From Gammaproteobacteria bacterium (lineage in GTDB: Bacteria; Pseudomonadota; Gammaproteobacteria; UBA4575), in NCBI GenBank assembly GCA_022824965.1, contig JAJDYY010000008.1, forward strand, positions 449,482 to 513,481: a stretch of 64,000 nt of DNA. Reading direction: 5' to 3'. A program made the translations under genes and the position numbers. Positions 18,874 to 27,007 of this stretch are shown here, piece after piece. The notes under the pieces were generated by a model. It was not told the origin of the DNA, made no database searches, and worked only from the letters and a program-made list of their open reading frames with translations. The stretch's first letter is position 1. The number at the start of each line of letters is the position of its first letter.

Positions 18874-20091
18874 CTATCTGGCAAAAACCGGCCTGTCCCT
18901 GTTTAACCCCATTGCATGCTCCATGAAAAACCTTTTCATGGAGGGTGTGTGCTCCGCGATGCTCAGTGCAACACTGCGAGCCGCGACTACGGGTTTGGAA
19001 GAAGAACCGTATACAGCCACGAATGCATGCATCGCAGACTGCATGACCTGGACCTCTCCTGCCCTGGCACGCTCATATTTCCGCAACATCCGAAGGCTGC
19101 CTATATCCCGCTTTGTGTGCTCAAGGATGTCGGCCAAAATCGCGACATCGGTCAATCCAAGATTGGCCCCCTGACCTGCTAACGGATGCAAGGTGTGGGC
19201 AGCGTCCCCGACCAATGCGATCCGGGGCTTGACCAGATTGCCGGCCTGACCAGAAATCAGCGGGAAATCAGCACGCTCCGACAGCAGGCGGACCTTGCCC
19301 AGCCGTGAATCGCTGGCCGTGGTGATTTCCTGGGAAAACTCCTTTTCTCCCATTTGCATCAGCTGCTTCGCGTATTCATGGTCGGCTGACCAGACGATGG
19401 AGCATTCACGATGCTTTTTGTCACTTCCAACGGGCAACAGGGCCAGTGGACCCGTCTTGAGAAAACGCTGCCATGCAGTACGCTGATGCGAAAATTCTGT
19501 TTGTACATTTGCCACGATGCCCTGCTGCAGATACGGCTTTTCAGCATAGGGGATTTCTGCGAGACCACGCACACCCGACCGGCTCCCGTCTGCCCCCACC
19601 AGCAGTTTCGCCCTGAGCAATTGCTTGTTTTCCAGAATTGCCTCAATCCCATCGTCGCGGTGGACGATGTCTGTCACGCTCCCGGGCACGTACCAGTGAA
19701 CACCGGGTACCTCGCGAAGGGGTTCATGCAAGCTTGACAGAATTGCCTTGTTTTCCACGATATAGCCCAAGACAGACTGGCGAATTTCTCTCGCACAAAA
19801 GTGAATTTCTGCGCTGCTGGCGGCATCCCAAACAACCATGGCATCAAAGGCACTTGTCCGTTTCGCCTGCACTTGCGGCCAGATTCCAATGTGCTCGAAA
19901 ATTGCCCTGGAACCGGGGCTGACGGCTGTGACCCGCACATCGCAAGGTTGTTCACGGTCAAACTTCGGTGGCAGTACACGGTCGACAACGGCCAGTGATT
20001 TACCTTGCTTTGCCAACAGGTTGACCAATGTAAGGCCGGCGATGCCGGCCCCTACGATAATGATATCGACCTGTGTGGCTTGTGCAGTCAT
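18874..20091 (-). CDS. ubiI: FAD-dependent ubiquinone biosynthesis monooxygenase (UbiH/UbiF/UbiI family), distal paralogue
   Basis: N-terminal FAD fold (VDIIIVGAGIAGLTL), a GD motif (LVGDAAHTLHPLAGQGANLGLTDV) and about 406 aa from the Met at 20091. The ORF extends to 20319 through an unlikely leader. Assigning ubiI rather than ubiH is by position (second after pepP) only. Confidence 0.8.
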   Translation of the reverse strand: MTAQATQVDIIIVGAGIAGLTLVNLLAKQGKSLAVVDRVLPPKFDREQPCDVRVTAVSPGSRAIFEHIGIWPQVQAKRTSAFDAMVVWDAASSAEIHFCAREIRQSVLGYIVENKAILSSLHEPLREVPGVHWYVPGSVTDIVHRDDGIEAILENKQLLRAKLLVGADGSRSGVRGLAEIPYAEKPYLQQGIVANVQTEFSHQRTAWQRFLKTGPLALLPVGSDKKHRECSIVWSADHEYAKQLMQMGEKEFSQEITTASDSRLGKVRLLSERADFPLISGQAGNLVKPRIALVGDAAHTLHPLAGQGANLGLTDVAILADILEHTKRDIGSLRMLRKYERARAGEVQVMQSAMHAFVAVYGSSSKPVVAARSVALSIAEHTPSMKRFFMEHAMGLNRDRPVFAR

Positions 20092-21305
20092 GCAGACTGC
20101 GGGGGGTTGCCTTGAAGAAGATTTGCCACAGAGCTGGGAACCCCCGTACTTTGGCGCAGAATGATGTTTTCCAAAAGCGGGATTGCGCCCAGCATTGCAA
20201 GGCCAATCCCCCTTGTACGAGACAGTACCGGATCGTTTGTAGTGAACAAGAAATTGAAGATATCCGTAAGCCTTATGGTGCGCTTGATATCCGATTGGCG
20301 TCCCGACGCATATGCACAAAGTCTCTCGCTGATCCCGTCAGGCCCATCGTCGCCTGTGTTCAGCACTTCACTGAGTTCCGCAACATCCCGCAACGCTAGA
20401 TTCAGGCTTTGTGCGCCAATCGGATGCAGTGTTTGGGCTGCATTGCCGATCAACACTACACGCTCTTGTACACGCCGCTGACTCACCAGCAATGACAAGG
20501 GAAAGGCAGAACGTTTGCCTATTTTGGAAAAATAGCCCAGGCGGTAACCAAAGGCTTGCTGCAGTTGCAGCAGAAAATCCTCATCGGTACGCGCCATGAG
20601 CTCTCGTGCAATACTGTCCGGGAGCACCCAGACAAACCCGCAATTGTTACCCGCATGTGGCAGCAGTGTTAATGGACCCTGCCGGGTGAACCGCTCATAG
20701 GCCGTAAACTGATGATCACCATCCACGCTGACATTGCCGACAATTGCCGTCTGATGATATTTCTTCTCGTTGGCAGGGATGCCCAGCTTGTTGCGAATGA
20801 AAGAATGTGTCCCGTCAGCAGCAATCAACAAATCAGTCTGTATGGGTTCTCCCTCACCGTGCAGGATGACCCGATCTGCATGACTCTCAATATCGGACAC
20901 CTTGTAGGGCTGGATGCACTGGATATTCTCATGGTGCCGGAGATGCTCCTGCAAGGACAATACGAGCTTTTCAGCAGGAACCATATAGCCGAAACCCTCT
21001 GATTCATGGTTTCGGCAGTCCATGCGCATGGCACCGAATCGCCCCCGATCTGAAATATGAATTTTCTGGATCGCTATGGAATGTGAGCCAATCTGCTCCC
21101 ATACGCCTAGGGCATCGAACATTCTTTTGGAAGCCAGGGCCAATGCGATGCTGCGTTCATCCCTGTAGGCACCTGTACCGTTTGCCGAAGAAACAGGCCG
21201 GCTTTCAATCAGGGCAATCCGGCGGGGCATGGCTGCTAGGGCACAAGCCAGCGTGCCACCAACGAAACCACCGCCTACAATCGCAATGTCATAGTGACGC
21301 GGCAT
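20088..21305 (-). CDS. ubiH: FAD-dependent ubiquinone biosynthesis monooxygenase (UbiH-like), proximal paralogue
   Basis: YDIAIVGGGFVGGTLA FAD fold, LIGNAAQTLHPIGAQSLNLALRDV motif and 405 aa. ATGA overlap with the downstream paralogue. Sits directly after pepP as in E. coli pepP-ubiH-visC. Confidence 0.8.
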   Translation of the reverse strand: MPRHYDIAIVGGGFVGGTLACALAAMPRRIALIESRPVSSANGTGAYRDERSIALALASKRMFDALGVWEQIGSHSIAIQKIHISDRGRFGAMRMDCRNHESEGFGYMVPAEKLVLSLQEHLRHHENIQCIQPYKVSDIESHADRVILHGEGEPIQTDLLIAADGTHSFIRNKLGIPANEKKYHQTAIVGNVSVDGDHQFTAYERFTRQGPLTLLPHAGNNCGFVWVLPDSIARELMARTDEDFLLQLQQAFGYRLGYFSKIGKRSAFPLSLLVSQRRVQERVVLIGNAAQTLHPIGAQSLNLALRDVAELSEVLNTGDDGPDGISERLCAYASGRQSDIKRTIRLTDIFNFLFTTNDPVLSRTRGIGLAMLGAIPLLENIILRQSTGVPSSVANLLQGNPPQSA

Positions 21306-21320
21306 AACGTACAGGGGAAC

Positions 21321-22631
21321 TCAATGCACGGATCCTGCCATCAGGGATTCAATTTCGCCCGGATCCCGGGTGAGCTTTTCGGTAAGCACCTGATTTCCAT
21401 CCTTGGTGACCAGCACATCATCCTCGATACGGATCCCCATATCCCAGTAAGGTTTGGGTACGCCTTTTGTCCGGGTAATGTACAAACCCGGTTCGACAGT
21501 CAATGTCATGCCCGGCTCAAACAGACGCCATTCTTCATCAAAACGATAGTCGCCGACATCATGGACATCCATACCCAGCCAATGACCGGTACGATGCATA
21601 TAAAACTGCCTGTATTTCTCGTCTTTGATCAGTTTGGCAGGCTTGCCTTTCAACAAACCCAGTTCCACCAGGCCCTTGGTAAGCACTTTCACAGCTTCAT
21701 TATGCGGGTCATTCCAATGGTTGCCGGGCTTTACCTTTCGGATCGCAGCAGTCTGGGCTGCCAGCACCAGCTCGTACACTTCCCGCTGTGCCCTAGAAAA
21801 AATTCCGTTTACGGGAAAGGTACGGGTGATATCACTGGCATAACCCTGGTACTCTGCACCTGCGTCGATCAGCAACAAATCGCCATCGTTGAGGACTTGG
21901 CTGTTTTCGATGTAATGCAATATACAGGCATTGCCTCCACCGCCAACGATAGAAGGATAAGCCGGAACACAGCCTGCTTTCCTGAATTCATAGAGCAACT
22001 CGGCTTCAATTTCATGCTCATGCTTGCCCGGCTCACAAGCCTGCATGGCGCGCAGATGGGCAGCGATGGAAACCTTTGCCGCCTTGCGCATCAGGCTTAC
22101 CTCGCTGCGTGACTTGTACAATCGCATGTCGTGCAAAGGGTAATCCAGCGATAGCAGCTCATGGAGCGTGTGCTTTCTGGCCCGATAAGAGCCACGGGAC
22201 TGATTCACCCAGCTGATGACCTTGTGGTCAAAACCTGCATCACGACCCATTGGGTAAAATATTCTTTCACGATCCGAAAGGAGCCGTGGCAATACTTCAT
22301 CCAGTCGATTGATCGCATAGGCCTTGTCTGCAAGATAATCCTTCACCGCGCCTTCCAGACCAGCCCGGCGCCCACTCCATATCTCCTGGTCGGCATCGCG
22401 CTCCCGACAGAACAATATGTACCGGTCACCCTCCTTGTCCGGCATCAGCAATGCCAGGGCGTCGGGTTCGTCAAAACCCGTCAGGTACAGAAAGTCGCTT
22501 TCCTGGCGAAAGACATGATCCACGTCCCGATTTCTCGGGACCAGCTTTGCAGAAGGCACAATGGCGACCCCCTTTGGGCCCACCATGCGCATCAGCATTT
22601 TGCGTCGCTTGATCAGCTCTTTCGTGTTCAT
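21321..22631 (-). CDS. pepP: Xaa-Pro aminopeptidase (aminopeptidase P)
   Basis: M24B creatinase/prolidase fold with the pita-bread metal-ligand region (DAGAEYQGYASDITRT, HRTGHWLGMDVHD, EPGMTLTVEPG) and 436 aa. Confidence 0.9.
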   Translation of the reverse strand: MNTKELIKRRKMLMRMVGPKGVAIVPSAKLVPRNRDVDHVFRQESDFLYLTGFDEPDALALLMPDKEGDRYILFCRERDADQEIWSGRRAGLEGAVKDYLADKAYAINRLDEVLPRLLSDRERIFYPMGRDAGFDHKVISWVNQSRGSYRARKHTLHELLSLDYPLHDMRLYKSRSEVSLMRKAAKVSIAAHLRAMQACEPGKHEHEIEAELLYEFRKAGCVPAYPSIVGGGGNACILHYIENSQVLNDGDLLLIDAGAEYQGYASDITRTFPVNGIFSRAQREVYELVLAAQTAAIRKVKPGNHWNDPHNEAVKVLTKGLVELGLLKGKPAKLIKDEKYRQFYMHRTGHWLGMDVHDVGDYRFDEEWRLFEPGMTLTVEPGLYITRTKGVPKPYWDMGIRIEDDVLVTKDGNQVLTEKLTRDPGEIESLMAGSVH

Positions 22632-22888
22632 GTCATGTTCCAGCAGCGAGTTCTACGAGGTTCAGGCCAGACGGCCCAGTAATCTGCAGGTGAATCCAGC
22701 CAGTATATACAGCAACTGCCAGACAAGTCTCCGGAAATTGGCCCGATGTACCCATGGCTAGGACCCCGTGCGCCAGACTCCTGCGAGGACACCTTGCCGC
22801 ATAAAATATCTTCAGCTTTTTCAGCATATCAAGGCATATTTCTTAAATTTGAGTTGACGATAAAGTTTCATCATCCTACCATTTTGGA

Positions 22889-23122
22889 ATGGGGAAGACA
22901 GAGTCAGGCCTGCTCAACGAACAGGAGCTAAAGCGACTTGAAAGTCGTGTAAACAACCTTATCCGGGCCTACGAAGACCTCAAGAAAGAGAACGGCCTTC
23001 TAAAGGCGCAGCAAGACACGTACACGGCTGAACGGGCTAGCCTGATTGATAAAAACGAGCAGGCACGCAAACGAGTCGAGGCCATGATAACCCGGCTTAA
23101 GTCGATGGAGGTCAGCATATGA
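22889..23122 (+). CDS. Small coiled-coil protein, ZapB-like (TIGR02449-type), translationally coupled to zapA
   Basis: 77 aa, almost entirely heptad-repeat helix (LKRLESRVNNLIRAYEDLKKENGLLKAQQD...). Its stop overlaps the zapA start (ATATGA). Confidence 0.55.
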   Translation: MGKTESGLLNEQELKRLESRVNNLIRAYEDLKKENGLLKAQQDTYTAERASLIDKNEQARKRVEAMITRLKSMEVSI

Positions 23123-23433
23123 GTACCTCGGATTCTCCCATAGCGCTCAGTATCCTGGACAAGGAATACCGTGTGGTGTGCGGGGCAGGTGAAGAAGAGT
23201 CCCTGCAGGCATCTGCAGAACTGCTGAATACGCACATCGAGGAAGTGCGCAATGGAGGCAAGGTCATCGGTGCGGATCGCGTAGCGGTGATGGCCGCATT
23301 GAACCTGGCCCACACCCTGCTCTCACAAACCGATGAACAGAATCAGGTAAGCAAAAGTTTCCGTACCCGCGTTCGTGACCTTCAGGACCGAATTGATTCC
23401 GCCTTGGGAAATACCCGACAGCTTGAGCTATGA
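23119..23433 (+). CDS. zapA: Cell division protein ZapA
   Basis: 104-aa ZapA-like sequence (ILDKEYRVVCGAGEEESLQASAELLNTHIEEV...VMAALNLAHTL) with a C-terminal coiled coil. 6S RNA follows immediately downstream. Confidence 0.85.
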   Translation: MSTSDSPIALSILDKEYRVVCGAGEEESLQASAELLNTHIEEVRNGGKVIGADRVAVMAALNLAHTLLSQTDEQNQVSKSFRTRVRDLQDRIDSALGNTRQLEL

Positions 23434-23443
23434 GAATCTGCTA

Positions 23444-23652
23444 AACTCAATACTGAAACCGGATACCTCTGCGGTACAGGTGAGTTGCTAGATACATACC
23501 TTGAGCCTATTTTTTTACTCAGGGACAATGCTGTAAAAAATGTTGTTGTGCAACCCCAGAAAAATGGGAAGCCTGATGCATTTTTCAGTTCTCCCACTTG
23601 AACCTCTGGTTCAAGGGCTATAGCGACCACAGTATTCGTGGAGTGTATCCGC
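23444..23652 (+). ncRNA. ssrS: 6S RNA (SsrS)
   Basis: Intergenic segment directly downstream of zapA, as in E. coli. It contains the conserved 3'-side hairpin CACUUGAACC-UCUG-GUUCAAGGGCUAUAGC (E. coli: CACCUUGAACCAAGGGUUCAAGGGUUACAGCC) and the 5'-side CCUUGAGCCUAUUUUUUUAC element (E. coli: CCCUGAGCCGAUAUUUCAUAC). The terminal regions can pair (caatactg / cagtattcg). The ends are approximate. Confidence 0.7.
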
Positions 23653-23713
23653 GTACTACGCTTCCTGTTCTTTACTAAAATCCATATTCAAACAAGTCGT
23701 AGGGTAGACCGCC

Positions 23714-24166
23714 ATGCAGTATTGGTTAATGAAAAGCGAGCCAGGTGAATACAGTATCGATGACCTGAAACGGGACAGAGTGGAGCCTTGGGACGGAGTA
23801 CGAAATTACCAGGCACGCAACATGATGCGCGATGACATGAAAAAAGGGGATCTGGCCTTCATGTACCACTCGAATTGCGATGAAATTGGAATCGTGGGCA
23901 TTATGACGATCGCACGCGAGTCGTATGCCGACTACACCGCCTTCGACCGGGAGGACAAGCATTATGACCCCAAAAGTGATCCCGAAAATCCGCGCTGGTT
24001 CATGGTTGATGTCCGTTATAAGCGAAAATTAAAACGTACCATCACGCTGTCAGAACTCAGGCAACAAAAAAAACTTGATGGCTTACAACTCTTAAGACCC
24101 GGCAACCGACTTTCAGTCATGCCAGTAAGCAAAAAACACTGGGATTATATTTTGTCATTAGAGTGA
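23714..24166 (+). CDS. EVE (PUA-like, DUF55) domain protein
   Basis: 150-aa stand-alone EVE domain (MQYWLMKSEPGEYSIDDLK...WDGVRNYQARNMMRDDMKKGDLAFMYHS...). Confidence 0.8.
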   Translation: MQYWLMKSEPGEYSIDDLKRDRVEPWDGVRNYQARNMMRDDMKKGDLAFMYHSNCDEIGIVGIMTIARESYADYTAFDREDKHYDPKSDPENPRWFMVDVRYKRKLKRTITLSELRQQKKLDGLQLLRPGNRLSVMPVSKKHWDYILSLE

Positions 24167-24300
24167 ATTGACGCTTGGCGACTTCAGTTTTTGTGCGTAT
24201 TTTTAAAATTAAAAACATCGCAAAAAAACTAGTATTTATATATCAAACGTATATACTTTAGCGCGACAACAACTCAACGTTTATTGTTTGGAGGGGGGTA

Positions 24301-24654
24301 TTGATGGCCATCAAGAAACGTAAGACCGCTGCAACTGCCAGACGTAAGACTGCCAAAAAAGCCGTTAAGCGTAAGACCGCTGCAACTGCCAGACGTAAAA
24401 CTGCTAAGAAAGCTGTTAAGCGTAAGACCGCTGCAACTGCCAAACGTAAAACTGCTAAGAAGGCTGTCAAACGTAAAACCGCCAAGCGCAAGACCGTCAA
24501 AAAAGCTGCCAAGCGTAAGACTGCAAAACGCAAGACCGCCAAGAAAGCCGTTAAGCGTAAAACCGCCAAGCGCAAGACCGTCAAAAAAGCTGCCAAGCGT
24601 AAGACTGCAAAACGCAAGACCGCTAAAAGAGCTGTCAAACGCAAGGCCCGCTGA
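24301..24654 (+). CDS. Histone H1-like, Lys/Ala-rich repetitive nucleoid-associated protein
   Basis: 117 aa, about 40% Lys/Arg, built from KRKTAATARRKTAKKAV-type repeats. Strong GGAGGGGGG RBS 7 nt upstream and a terminator immediately downstream. Confidence 0.75.
   Translation: MMAIKKRKTAATARRKTAKKAVKRKTAATARRKTAKKAVKRKTAATAKRKTAKKAVKRKTAKRKTVKKAAKRKTAKRKTAKKAVKRKTAKRKTVKKAAKRKTAKRKTAKRAVKRKAR
24317..24650 (+). repeat. Coding tandem repeats (3 x 51 nt, then about 4 x 42 nt) inside the histone-like gene
   Basis: Direct inspection shows cgtaagaccgctgcaactgccagacgtaa[g/a]actgc[c/t]aa[a/g]aaagc[c/t]gttaag repeated three times, then cgtaa[a/g]ac[c/t]gc[c/a]aa[g/a]cgcaagaccg[t/c]caa[a/g]aaagc[t/c]g[c/t][ct]aag units. 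Confidence 0.8.
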
Positions 24655-24675
24655 CGCAGAACCAACCGCACCATA

Positions 24676-24759: not shown

Positions 24760-26277
24760 CTACCCCAGAAACAATTTGTACACTGGATTCCCGGTTTCCT
24801 CCCAGCAGCGGTATCCTAGCTCCGCCAAGAACTGATTAAAGCGCTCTCTGTGTTCTGTGGGCACTTGGATCCCTGCCAACACACGCCCATAAGCTGCACC
24901 GTGATTGCGGTAGTGAAATAAGCTGATATTCCATTCCTGCCCGATCATTTCCAAAAAGTCCAGCAGTGCGCCTGGCCGCTCTGGAAATTCAAAGCGAAAT
25001 AGAATTTCATTCTCCAGGGCTGGACTTCGACCCCCTACCATGTGCCGCAAGTGAAGTATTGCAACTTCATTATCAGAGATATCCAGTGCAGGATATCCGG
25101 ACGCTTCCAATGTTTGTAACAACTGATTTTTTTCGGTTCCCGCATCCTCTACGTTCACGCCCAGAAAGATCTGGGCTTCCTCAGTATCTGCATAACGATA
25201 GTTAAATTCCGTAACCCCCCTGGATCCGAGCAATCGGCAGAAAGTCAAAAAACTGCCTGGCTGTTCAGGGATTGTCACTGCAAACAGGCACTCCTTTCGT
25301 TCTCCAAGCTCCGCGCGCTCTGCTACATGACGCAAACGATCAAAATTCATATTTGCGCCGCTATTGACTGCTACCAGTAATTTGTCTGTGACCCCTTCTT
25401 TGTCAACGTACTGTTTGATCCCCGCCAAAGCCAACGCCCCTGCTGGTTCGAATAGCGTGCGTGTCTCATCAAAGAGGTCCTTGATGGCAGCACAGATTTC
25501 ATCTGTACTTACCAGCAGCACATCATCGACATGTTGTCTTGCAATTTCGAAAGTCTTTTCACCTACGCATCGCACAGCAACTCCATCGGCAAAAATCCCG
25601 ACCGAATCCAGTTCCACTCTTTTTTTGGCCAGCAACGCATTATGCATGGTCGGCGCATCCTGCGGCTCGACCCCGATCACTTTTATGTCGGGCCGATAGT
25701 GCTTGATGTAGGATGCCATGCCGGCAATAAGCCCACCGCCTCCAACCGGAACAAAGATCGCGTCTATGCCAGACGGAATTTGCTGCAGGATCTCCAGTGC
25801 CACAGTTCCCTGTCCCGCAATTACATCTTCATCATCATAGGGATGCACGTATGACAGCCCCTGATCTTCTGCAAGTTCCTGAGAACGCAAAAAGGCCTCA
25901 TCGTAGGTGTCACCATGTAAAACGGCATTCGCCCCCATGCTGGTGACCGATTGCACCTTGATGGATGGGGTAGTACAGGGCATTACGATTGTGGCGTGAA
26001 TACCCAGTTTTTTCGCGGCAAGTGCTACGCCCTGAGCATGATTTCCTGCCGATGCAGCAATCACTCCTCGTTTTCTTTCCGCATCCGGCAAGTGTGCGAT
26101 TTTGTTGTAGGCACCTCTGAGCTTGAAGGAAAAAACGCTTTGCTGGTCTTCTCTCTTCAGAAAAATACGATTGGCAAACCGGCTGGACAGGGTCGATGCA
26201 AAATCAAGTGCAGACTTGACGGCAACGTCATACACCTTGGCATTTTCAATTTTGCTTACAAGTTTTTTGTTTGCCAT
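24760..26277 (-). CDS. ilvA: Threonine dehydratase, biosynthetic (two ACT-like regulatory domains)
   Basis: PLP-fold motif (FSFKLRGAYNKI, lysine underlined by context), full 505-aa length with a C-terminal regulatory region. Confidence 0.9.
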   Translation of the reverse strand: MANKKLVSKIENAKVYDVAVKSALDFASTLSSRFANRIFLKREDQQSVFSFKLRGAYNKIAHLPDAERKRGVIAASAGNHAQGVALAAKKLGIHATIVMPCTTPSIKVQSVTSMGANAVLHGDTYDEAFLRSQELAEDQGLSYVHPYDDEDVIAGQGTVALEILQQIPSGIDAIFVPVGGGGLIAGMASYIKHYRPDIKVIGVEPQDAPTMHNALLAKKRVELDSVGIFADGVAVRCVGEKTFEIARQHVDDVLLVSTDEICAAIKDLFDETRTLFEPAGALALAGIKQYVDKEGVTDKLLVAVNSGANMNFDRLRHVAERAELGERKECLFAVTIPEQPGSFLTFCRLLGSRGVTEFNYRYADTEEAQIFLGVNVEDAGTEKNQLLQTLEASGYPALDISDNEVAILHLRHMVGGRSPALENEILFRFEFPERPGALLDFLEMIGQEWNISLFHYRNHGAAYGRVLAGIQVPTEHRERFNQFLAELGYRCWEETGNPVYKLFLG

Positions 26278-26353: not shown

Positions 26354-27007
26354 ATGTCATCGGAGAAAAAAAAACTGGCTGCTGCCAAGGGTGCCCTGGA
26401 CTATATACAAGCCGGTGACGTAGTCGGCGTTGGTACAGGATCTACCGCAAATCATTTTATTGATGCGCTTGCAGGCATCAAGGGGAAAATCGATGGGACC
26501 GTGGCAAGTTCGGAAGCCACAGCACGGAGATTGAAGGAGCACGGCATACAGGTGCTGGACCTGAATAGCGTATCCGGCCTGCCTGTGTACGTCGATGGTG
26601 CCGACGAGGCGACCAGCCACAAACACTTGATCAAGGGCGGCGGTGGCGCACTGACGCGTGAAAAAATCGTTGCAGGGGTAAGTGAAAAATTCGTGTGCAT
26701 TGCTGACGATACCAAACTGGTCGACACCCTGGGAGCTTTCCCCTTACCCGTCGAGGTGATCCCCATGGCAAGAAGTCACGTGGCAAGACAGCTTGTCAAA
26801 CATGGCGGTGTCCCCGAGTTAAGGGAAGGGTATAGAACCGATAATGGCAATCTTATTCTCGATGTGCACAATTTAGAAATCCTGAATCCCGTAGACAAAG
26901 AGCGTGAATTGAACAATATCGCGGGGGTTGTGACTGTCGGGATATTTGCATTGAGGCCCGCCGACATACTGGTTTTGGGCGAAGAATCGGGCCTTCGAAT
27001 TATCTGA
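26354..27007 (+). CDS. rpiA: Ribose-5-phosphate isomerase A
   Basis: RpiA signature ([15 protein letters not shown]..., [19 protein letters not shown]) and 217 aa. Confidence 0.9.

Follow-up and report, generated by a model that had tools for sequence, protein, structure and literature searches.

A 6S RNA gene between zapA and an EVE-domain gene in a small-genome gammaproteobacterium related to Thiotrichales

6S RNA imitates an open promoter and restrains the housekeeping RNA polymerase. In beta- and gammaproteobacteria its gene, ssrS, belongs to the ZapB->ZapA->SsrS->(FAU1)->EVE unit described by Bell, Wolf and Koonin (2020, BMC Biol; PMC7641849), in which ssrS is nearly always present and often unannotated, and FAU1 is "not strictly necessary". 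The same study reports a head-to-head YgfB->PepP->UbiH->UbiI array as a frequent, not obligatory, companion of the unit, with RpiA and IlvA often nearby (PMC7641849). The link of ssrS with ygfA/fau across the gammaproteobacteria is older knowledge (PMC4064990).

Here we have analyzed a 64-kb window, the whole stretch of DNA under study, from an uncultured gammaproteobacterium that is related to Thiotrichales and has a genome of ~2 Mb. By combining a covariance-model match, the position of the match in related genomes and the covariation of its helices, we assign the region between zapA and the downstream EVE-domain gene, with very high confidence, to ssrS, encoding a canonical gammaproteobacterial 6S RNA. 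It adds a new member to a known family, in gene surroundings that have been published; RNA and context have both been described before, and existing knowledge of 6S RNA is unchanged by this case. What the locus does illustrate is how an ORF-based annotation can present either a 280-nt gap or a spurious 82-aa antisense ORF at the place where a global transcription regulator sits.

The 6S RNA match, its extent and its relatives

The initial annotation had placed a 6S RNA gene right after zapA and had named the RF00013 covariance model as the check, with a score below the gathering threshold counting against it. When the whole 64-kb window was scanned with Rfam 15 at gathering thresholds (cmscan), RF00013 (6S/SsrS) was the sole match, with a score of 74.4 bits (E of 8.2e-13) against a gathering score of 46.4 bits; the score thus does not fall below the threshold, and the match runs end to end, over model positions 1-187 of 187 without truncation (Table 1). 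Together with the position and covariation seen in relatives, this upholds the proposed gene. As a control, the same Rfam scan of the E. coli K-12 ssrS locus gave 139.8 bits exactly at the annotated gene, and the window score lies mid-range within the related set (54.7-104.8 bits). The gene lies between the stop codon of zapA (23431-23433) and the start codon of EVE (at 23714), with the RF00013 core beginning 29 nt past the former. Furthermore, the 186-nt core folds at -62.4 kcal/mol, with a z-score of -3.96 against dinucleotide shuffles.

Table 1. Features of the ssrS locus and its surroundings in the 64-kb window
Feature	Position	Strand	Basis
UbiH/UbiI-family hydroxylase	18874-20319	-	NCBIfam
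UbiH/UbiI-family hydroxylase	20088-21305	-	Pfam, NCBIfam
PepP	21321-22631	-	Pfam
ZapB-like coiled-coil protein, first gene of the unit	22889-23122	+	PF06005 (34.8 bits); TIGR02449 (82.4 bits)
ZapA, directly upstream of ssrS	23119-23433	+	PF05164 (77.1 bits)
Candidate extended -10 promoter, TGcTAAACT (TGCTAAACT)	23439-23447	+	Inferred from conservation across relatives
Terminal (closing) stem, largest extent	23458-23654	+	Minimum-energy fold with 10-nt flanks
6S RNA (ssrS) core by Rfam model	23463-23648	+	RF00013, full-length orthologues, covariation
Predicted product RNA (pRNA) template, pRNA 5'-AUAGGCUCAAGGUAUGUA...	23493-23510	+	Homology with E. coli mapping
CCUUGAGCC, 5' strand of bubble-adjacent helix (partner GGUUCAAGG, 23608-23616)	23499-23507	+	RNAalifold, Rfam structure
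Central bubble, 5' strand, UAUUUUUUUACUCA	23508-23521	+	Rfam alignment
Apical (upstream) stems and loop, with invariant GAAGCCU	23522-23595	+	Covariation of helices 3-6
CUUGAACC-UCU-GGUUCAAGG, arms able to form release hairpin	23597-23616	+	Unique in window; folding
Stand-alone EVE-domain protein, 65 nt past 6S core	23714-24166	+	PF01878 (201.6 bits)
IlvA	24760-26277	-	Pfam
RpiA	26354-27007	+	NCBIfam

The closing stem of the RNA can be followed beyond the Rfam ends. The sure extension is CGGAUAC (23460-23466), the exact complement of GUAUCCG (23645-23651), so that the ends of the gene can indeed pair, as had been claimed. In minimum-energy folds computed with 10-nt flanks, the window and relatives L002-L010 and L016 (loci of the survey below are cited by such numbers) have a stem that reaches 4-10 nt past the Rfam ends, against only 0-1 nt in L012 and L014. 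The mature RNA is accordingly predicted at probably about 186-197 nt. The limits first proposed for the gene, 23444-23652, do enclose it and are sound at the 3' end, whereas the 5' start lies ~15-19 nt too far 5' and includes part of the likely -10 element (23439-23447). When the Rfam register is imposed on the window, 10 of 51 model pairs are non-canonical, mostly in the terminal stem; we considered a damaged terminal stem and rejected it, since the minimum-energy fold pairs this stem fully in an alternative register and the non-canonical pairs thus reflect an alignment (register) slip rather than a defect.

Relatives were gathered by a ZapA search restricted to one genome per species, which yielded 80 loci. 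The nearest of these come from metagenome-assembled genomes of uncultured Gammaproteobacteria/Thiotrichales, several of them complete chromosomes of 1.8-2.0 Mb, the closest being OZ244850.1 (L002), with a ZapA that is 95% identical. Among the related loci that were scanned, a full-length 6S RNA lies directly past zapA in 35 of 36 (18/18 and 17/18 in two sets; 54.7-104.8 bits), with the matches beginning ~30 nt or more 3' of zapA.

Two loci of the survey stand apart. The sole one of the 36 without an Rfam 6S match is L063:4310-4562 (CAMYMI010000020.1, an Ectothiorhodospiraceae MAG), whose zapA-fau spacer retains an apparent 6S 3' half (GAAAGCCUGA, CUUGAACCUUCGGUUCAGGGG) and lacks the UGAGCC block and the 5' closing strand; either the gene is truncated or the contig is misassembled. 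The other, L011 (JAESUN010000058.1), is a 3.3-kb contig labelled Opitutaceae (Verrucomicrobiota) that carries pepP-ygfB / zapB-zapA-6S-EVE near-identical to gammaproteobacterial L010 and L013, and has probably been mis-binned.

Gene order around ssrS

To place the window among its relatives, the 80 loci were sorted by tblastn with the window EVE protein and E. coli Fau. The order zapA-6S-fau-EVE was found in 31 loci and zapA-6S-fau, with EVE not in reach, in 26; 14 loci, those of the window's clade, have zapA-6S-EVE without fau, 4 (Methylophaga and kin) have zapA-6S with neither gene, and 5 contigs were too short for assignment. With Fau from E. coli and six Fau sequences from closer relatives as tblastn queries, the 64-kb window itself gave nothing better than an E of 0.11, and fau is absent. 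The initial annotation was correct in placing EVE, rather than the 5-formyl-THF cyclo-ligase gene (fau), after ssrS, but a reading of EVE as a substitute for fau is rejected, as 31 of the 80 loci carry fau and EVE in tandem past ssrS. Because so many relatives carry both genes, the window shows a deletion of fau; judged from gene order, EVE is an old downstream member of the unit, with the window's clade having deleted the fau that stood between ssrS and EVE. The Methylophaga-type loci (L047, L064, L071 and L075; Methylophaga, Methylophagaceae) constitute a fourth arrangement of the unit, with a good 6S match (84-93 bits) and, over the 4 kb that follow, no fau and no EVE.

Upstream, the proposed E. 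coli-like synteny is borne out in part: the window has pepP and two genes of the UbiH/UbiI type, oriented head to head with the unit, but lacks ygfB. Specifically, the interval between pepP and the zapB-like gene (22632-22888 in the window) holds no ygfB here or in seven of the eight nearest relatives (L002-L005, L007-L009); L006 and the loci from L010 onward keep the gene. The losses of fau and ygfB fit a small-genome lineage and point to ongoing gene loss at this site in genomes of ~1.8-2.0 Mb. A lineage with a genome of ~2 Mb has, then, shed fau and ygfB and retains zapB, zapA, ssrS and EVE, and this retained unit without fau fits the published view of FAU1 as dispensable.

Two further ORFs of the neighborhood merit mention. 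The hydroxylase ORF at 18874-20319 (-), as listed, opens with a TTG start ~80 codons before its UbiH/UbiF-family match (from residue ~82) and overlaps the end of the neighboring hydroxylase gene; its true start is probably the ATG before MTAQATQVDIIIVGAG. Past the EVE gene, a 117-aa ORF at 24301-24654 (+) is rich in Lys, Ala, Thr and Arg and is built of tandem repeats with 51-, 42- and 84-nt periods (units like KRKTAATARRKTAKKAV). It has no match in Pfam or NCBIfam and resembles basic DNA-binding proteins of the histone-H1 or AlgP type; the repeats probably also give rise, as an artefact, to the mirror ORF on the other strand (24258-24674).

It is conceivable that this 6S RNA works as such and has in addition acquired a lineage-specific EVE role, for example if EVE reads a base modification carried by 6S RNA or its precursor, an idea raised by Bell et al. 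(PMC7641849). In 45 of the 80 loci EVE does lie past ssrS, whether immediately or with fau in between, and the ssrS-EVE link outlasts the loss of fau in the window's clade. However, 26 related loci have ssrS-fau without EVE nearby and 4 have neither gene, no 6S modification has been reported according to PMC7641849, and the tie between the two is one of adjacency, which by itself proves nothing; we therefore regard such a role as unlikely. There is likewise only a slim prospect that ssrS and EVE form a minimal two-gene transcript in which EVE might recognize a modified nucleotide of 6S RNA or its precursor, linking 6S maturation or turnover to EVE. If this were true, ssrS-EVE would have outlasted fau and ygfB on account of a functional tie and not simply by inheritance of the gene order. 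The window offers a compact natural ssrS-EVE pair in which to test EVE action on 6S RNA.

Conserved blocks and covarying helices

The assignment to a canonical 6S RNA gene draws further on conserved sequence and, above all, on base pairing. Both of the blocks originally named in support of the gene are found on the + strand. The first, TGAGCCTATTTTT, matches exactly at 23502-23514; at one mismatch, 0.44 chance matches are expected for this block and 2 are found, and being so short a motif it is weak evidence on its own. The second, CTTGAACC-TCT-GGTTCAAGG at 23597-23616, is unique in the window and appeared in none of 100 shuffles. In an alignment of 19 6S sequences (the window, 17 relatives and E. 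coli), UGAGCC, GAAGCCU and GGUUCAAG are unchanged in every sequence, E. coli included.

This alignment was made with MAFFT, which is blind to structure, and the Rfam consensus structure, carried over from the window's cmscan alignment, was then counted on it. Controls were obtained by sliding the 3' partner of each pair by 1-3 columns. Under the Rfam structure 79.3% of cells are paired (34-47% in the slid controls), 28 of 50 pairs have changed on both sides (9-14 in the slid controls), and the covariation score is 0.234 (0.079-0.127 in the slid controls). Shuffles matched the observed values in 0 of 500 trials on four of five measures. Since shuffling takes no account of relatedness, the fairer comparison is with the slid controls, and there, too, the difference is clear. 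Compensatory changes occur in 17 of the 23 pairs of helices 3-6, and helix 6 has 100% of its cells paired with changes at all 4 pairs. Nearer the ends, in the extended terminal stem and just within the Rfam core, L006 and L009 have C-G in place of the U23464-A23647 pair.

Working independently from the same MAFFT alignment, RNAalifold finds the closing stem, the bubble-flanking helix and the apical stem, with a compensatory change in 13 of 32 pairs; columns 37-45 pair with columns 153-161 (CCUUGAGCC/GGUUCAAGG) and are almost invariant (n = 19). Between these helices, the 3' strand of the central bubble begins at A23596 and includes 23597-23607, the first 11 nt of CUUGAACC-UCU-GGUUCAAGG. The minimum-energy fold closes the central bubble in part. 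Free-RNA folds of 6S often do so.

These patterns bear on whether the gene could be a decaying or non-functional 6S relic, or serve only as a structured leader of the EVE mRNA, having ceased to regulate polymerase. Such a fate would suit a lineage that is losing genes at this very locus (fau and ygfB are gone), and the remoter relative L063 appears to keep only the 3' half of its 6S RNA. Yet the RF00013 match covers the full model and exceeds the curated threshold, the functional blocks (among them the template U and the release hairpin) are all intact, and compensatory changes maintain the helices within the window's own clade; moreover, the adjacent 6S-EVE spacer diverges freely and the 6S RNA does not. 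Loss of function is hence very improbable. To the reading in which the region is an opposite-strand protein gene and its 6S likeness incidental we attach negligible probability: an 82-aa GTG-start ORF in the ORF list (23382-23630, - strand) does span most of the region, but it would overlap the zapA 3' end, the substitution pattern of the region is one of compensatory base pairing, the antisense strand of E. coli 6S RNA has an even longer chance open frame (101 codons), and the frame, 95 open codons long in the window, shrinks to 55 already in the closest relative (L002, with its ZapA 95% identical) and measures 42-62 in L003-L009, a lack of conservation for which the ORF is rejected.

Expression, product RNA and comparison with known 6S loci

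For the ssrS gene, a candidate promoter can be recognized from its conservation. In the window and each of the loci L002-L009, the motif TGnTAnAnT starts 9 nt past the last zapA coding base (6 nt past the stop codon); its variants read TGATAAACT, TGGTACAGT, TGCTACAGT, TGCTAGACT and TGCTATAGT. Across these loci there is no change in the TG or at hexamer positions 1, 2, 4 and 6, and variation is confined to positions 3 and 5, a pattern of fixation and drift that would be expected of a working extended -10 promoter. Such promoters require no -35 element. A generic sigma-70 scan, in which a -35 hexamer is required, found no + strand promoter around the RNA, and misses the TGnTAnAnT candidate because the latter has no -35 match. 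From this candidate, transcription is predicted to start near 23454-23456, ~7 nt downstream of the motif and a few bases before the terminal stem. In L010-L016, the next clade out, the motif is missing; transcription there may depend on another promoter, for which TTGGAA-18-TACACT, spotted by eye, is a possible candidate.

At the other end of the gene, a terminator scan found no terminator-like site on the + strand around 6S or before the EVE gene, and the generic scan found no promoter-like site on the + strand between the two; the spacer that separates them (65 nt) is poorly conserved across relatives. In E. coli, one transcript spans ssrS and the gene that follows, and processing generates the 3' end of the RNA (PMC7641849 and its references 95 and 96). 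By analogy, ssrS and EVE are probably co-transcribed in the window: transcription would start at the conserved extended -10 promoter a few bases past the zapA stop codon, and the transcript would run on into the EVE gene, as that of E. coli ssrS does into fau. Such run-on would mean that the 6S 3' end is formed by processing and not by an intrinsic terminator.

How the RNA might act can be read across from E. coli. There, polymerase begins product RNA (pRNA) at template U44, copying of the lower strand of the downstream helix frees the other strand, and a hairpin arises once the pRNA is at least 8 nt long; this release hairpin ejects sigma-70 and frees the RNA (PMC9670815). In the Rfam alignment, window position U23510 aligns with E. 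coli U44, and mapping from E. coli predicts the window product RNA to be 5'-AUAGGCUCAAGGUAUGUAUC, the same mapping giving AUCGGCUCAGGGGACUGGCC / AUCGGCUCAG... from U44 on the E. coli control. When 9, 13, 16 or 20 template bases are blocked, minimum-energy folds of both window and E. coli RNAs contain the 8-bp CUUGAACC/GGUUCAAG hairpin. As an in silico consistency check on the release mechanism, the folding result for the window agrees with the published E. coli account (PMC9670815).

By homology with E. coli 6S RNA, we infer the following mechanism for the window RNA. The folded RNA would form a long imperfect hairpin with a big central bubble that imitates an open promoter. Upon the return of nucleotides, polymerase would copy the RNA from U23510 into a short product, predicted as 5'-AUAGGCUCAAGG..., which would unzip the CCUUGAGCC/GGUUCAAGG helix. 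The freed GGUUCAAG strand could then pair with CUUGAACC, and the resulting hairpin would release the polymerase.

Among the described systems, the 6S RNA of Coxiella burnetii (PMC4064990) offers a parallel in that it, too, is a gammaproteobacterial RNA of ~185 nt from a small genome and was found by position and consensus structure. The Coxiella RNA has been confirmed by Northern blot and polymerase pull-down, whereas that of the window is known from its sequence; and ssrS of C. burnetii lies in the 5' UTR of ygfA (fau), a gene that is absent here (PMC4064990).

With E. coli 6S RNA (ssrS, b2911) the window RNA shares membership of RF00013, a place directly past zapA, the blocks CUGAGCC/UUGAGCC, GAAGCCU and CUUGAACC...GGUUCAAGG, a U that aligns with template position U44 and the same predicted release hairpin, and in both cases there is no intrinsic terminator ahead of the next gene. 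It differs in being far more A+U-rich (44% G+C), in its lower score (74 versus 140 bits), in apical stems of different sequence and, relative to the Rfam model, in a terminal stem that is a few pairs longer. The promoters may differ as well: E. coli ssrS has P1 at -9 and P2 at -224 (PMC9670815), whereas the candidate in the window is an extended -10 element abutting the RNA. As to neighbors, the downstream gene is EVE rather than fau, and ygfB is absent upstream.

A further counterpart is the published ZapB-ZapA-SsrS-(FAU1)-EVE unit, all parts of which the window contains in the same order and orientation (+ strand), in the variant without FAU1. The head-to-head PepP and UbiH/UbiI genes (- strand) as well as IlvA and RpiA are also present, while the YgfB of that array is missing in the window and in 7 of its 8 nearest relatives. 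Finally, where the 6S gene in PMC7641849 was inferred from an intergenic gap, here it is identified by a covariance model.
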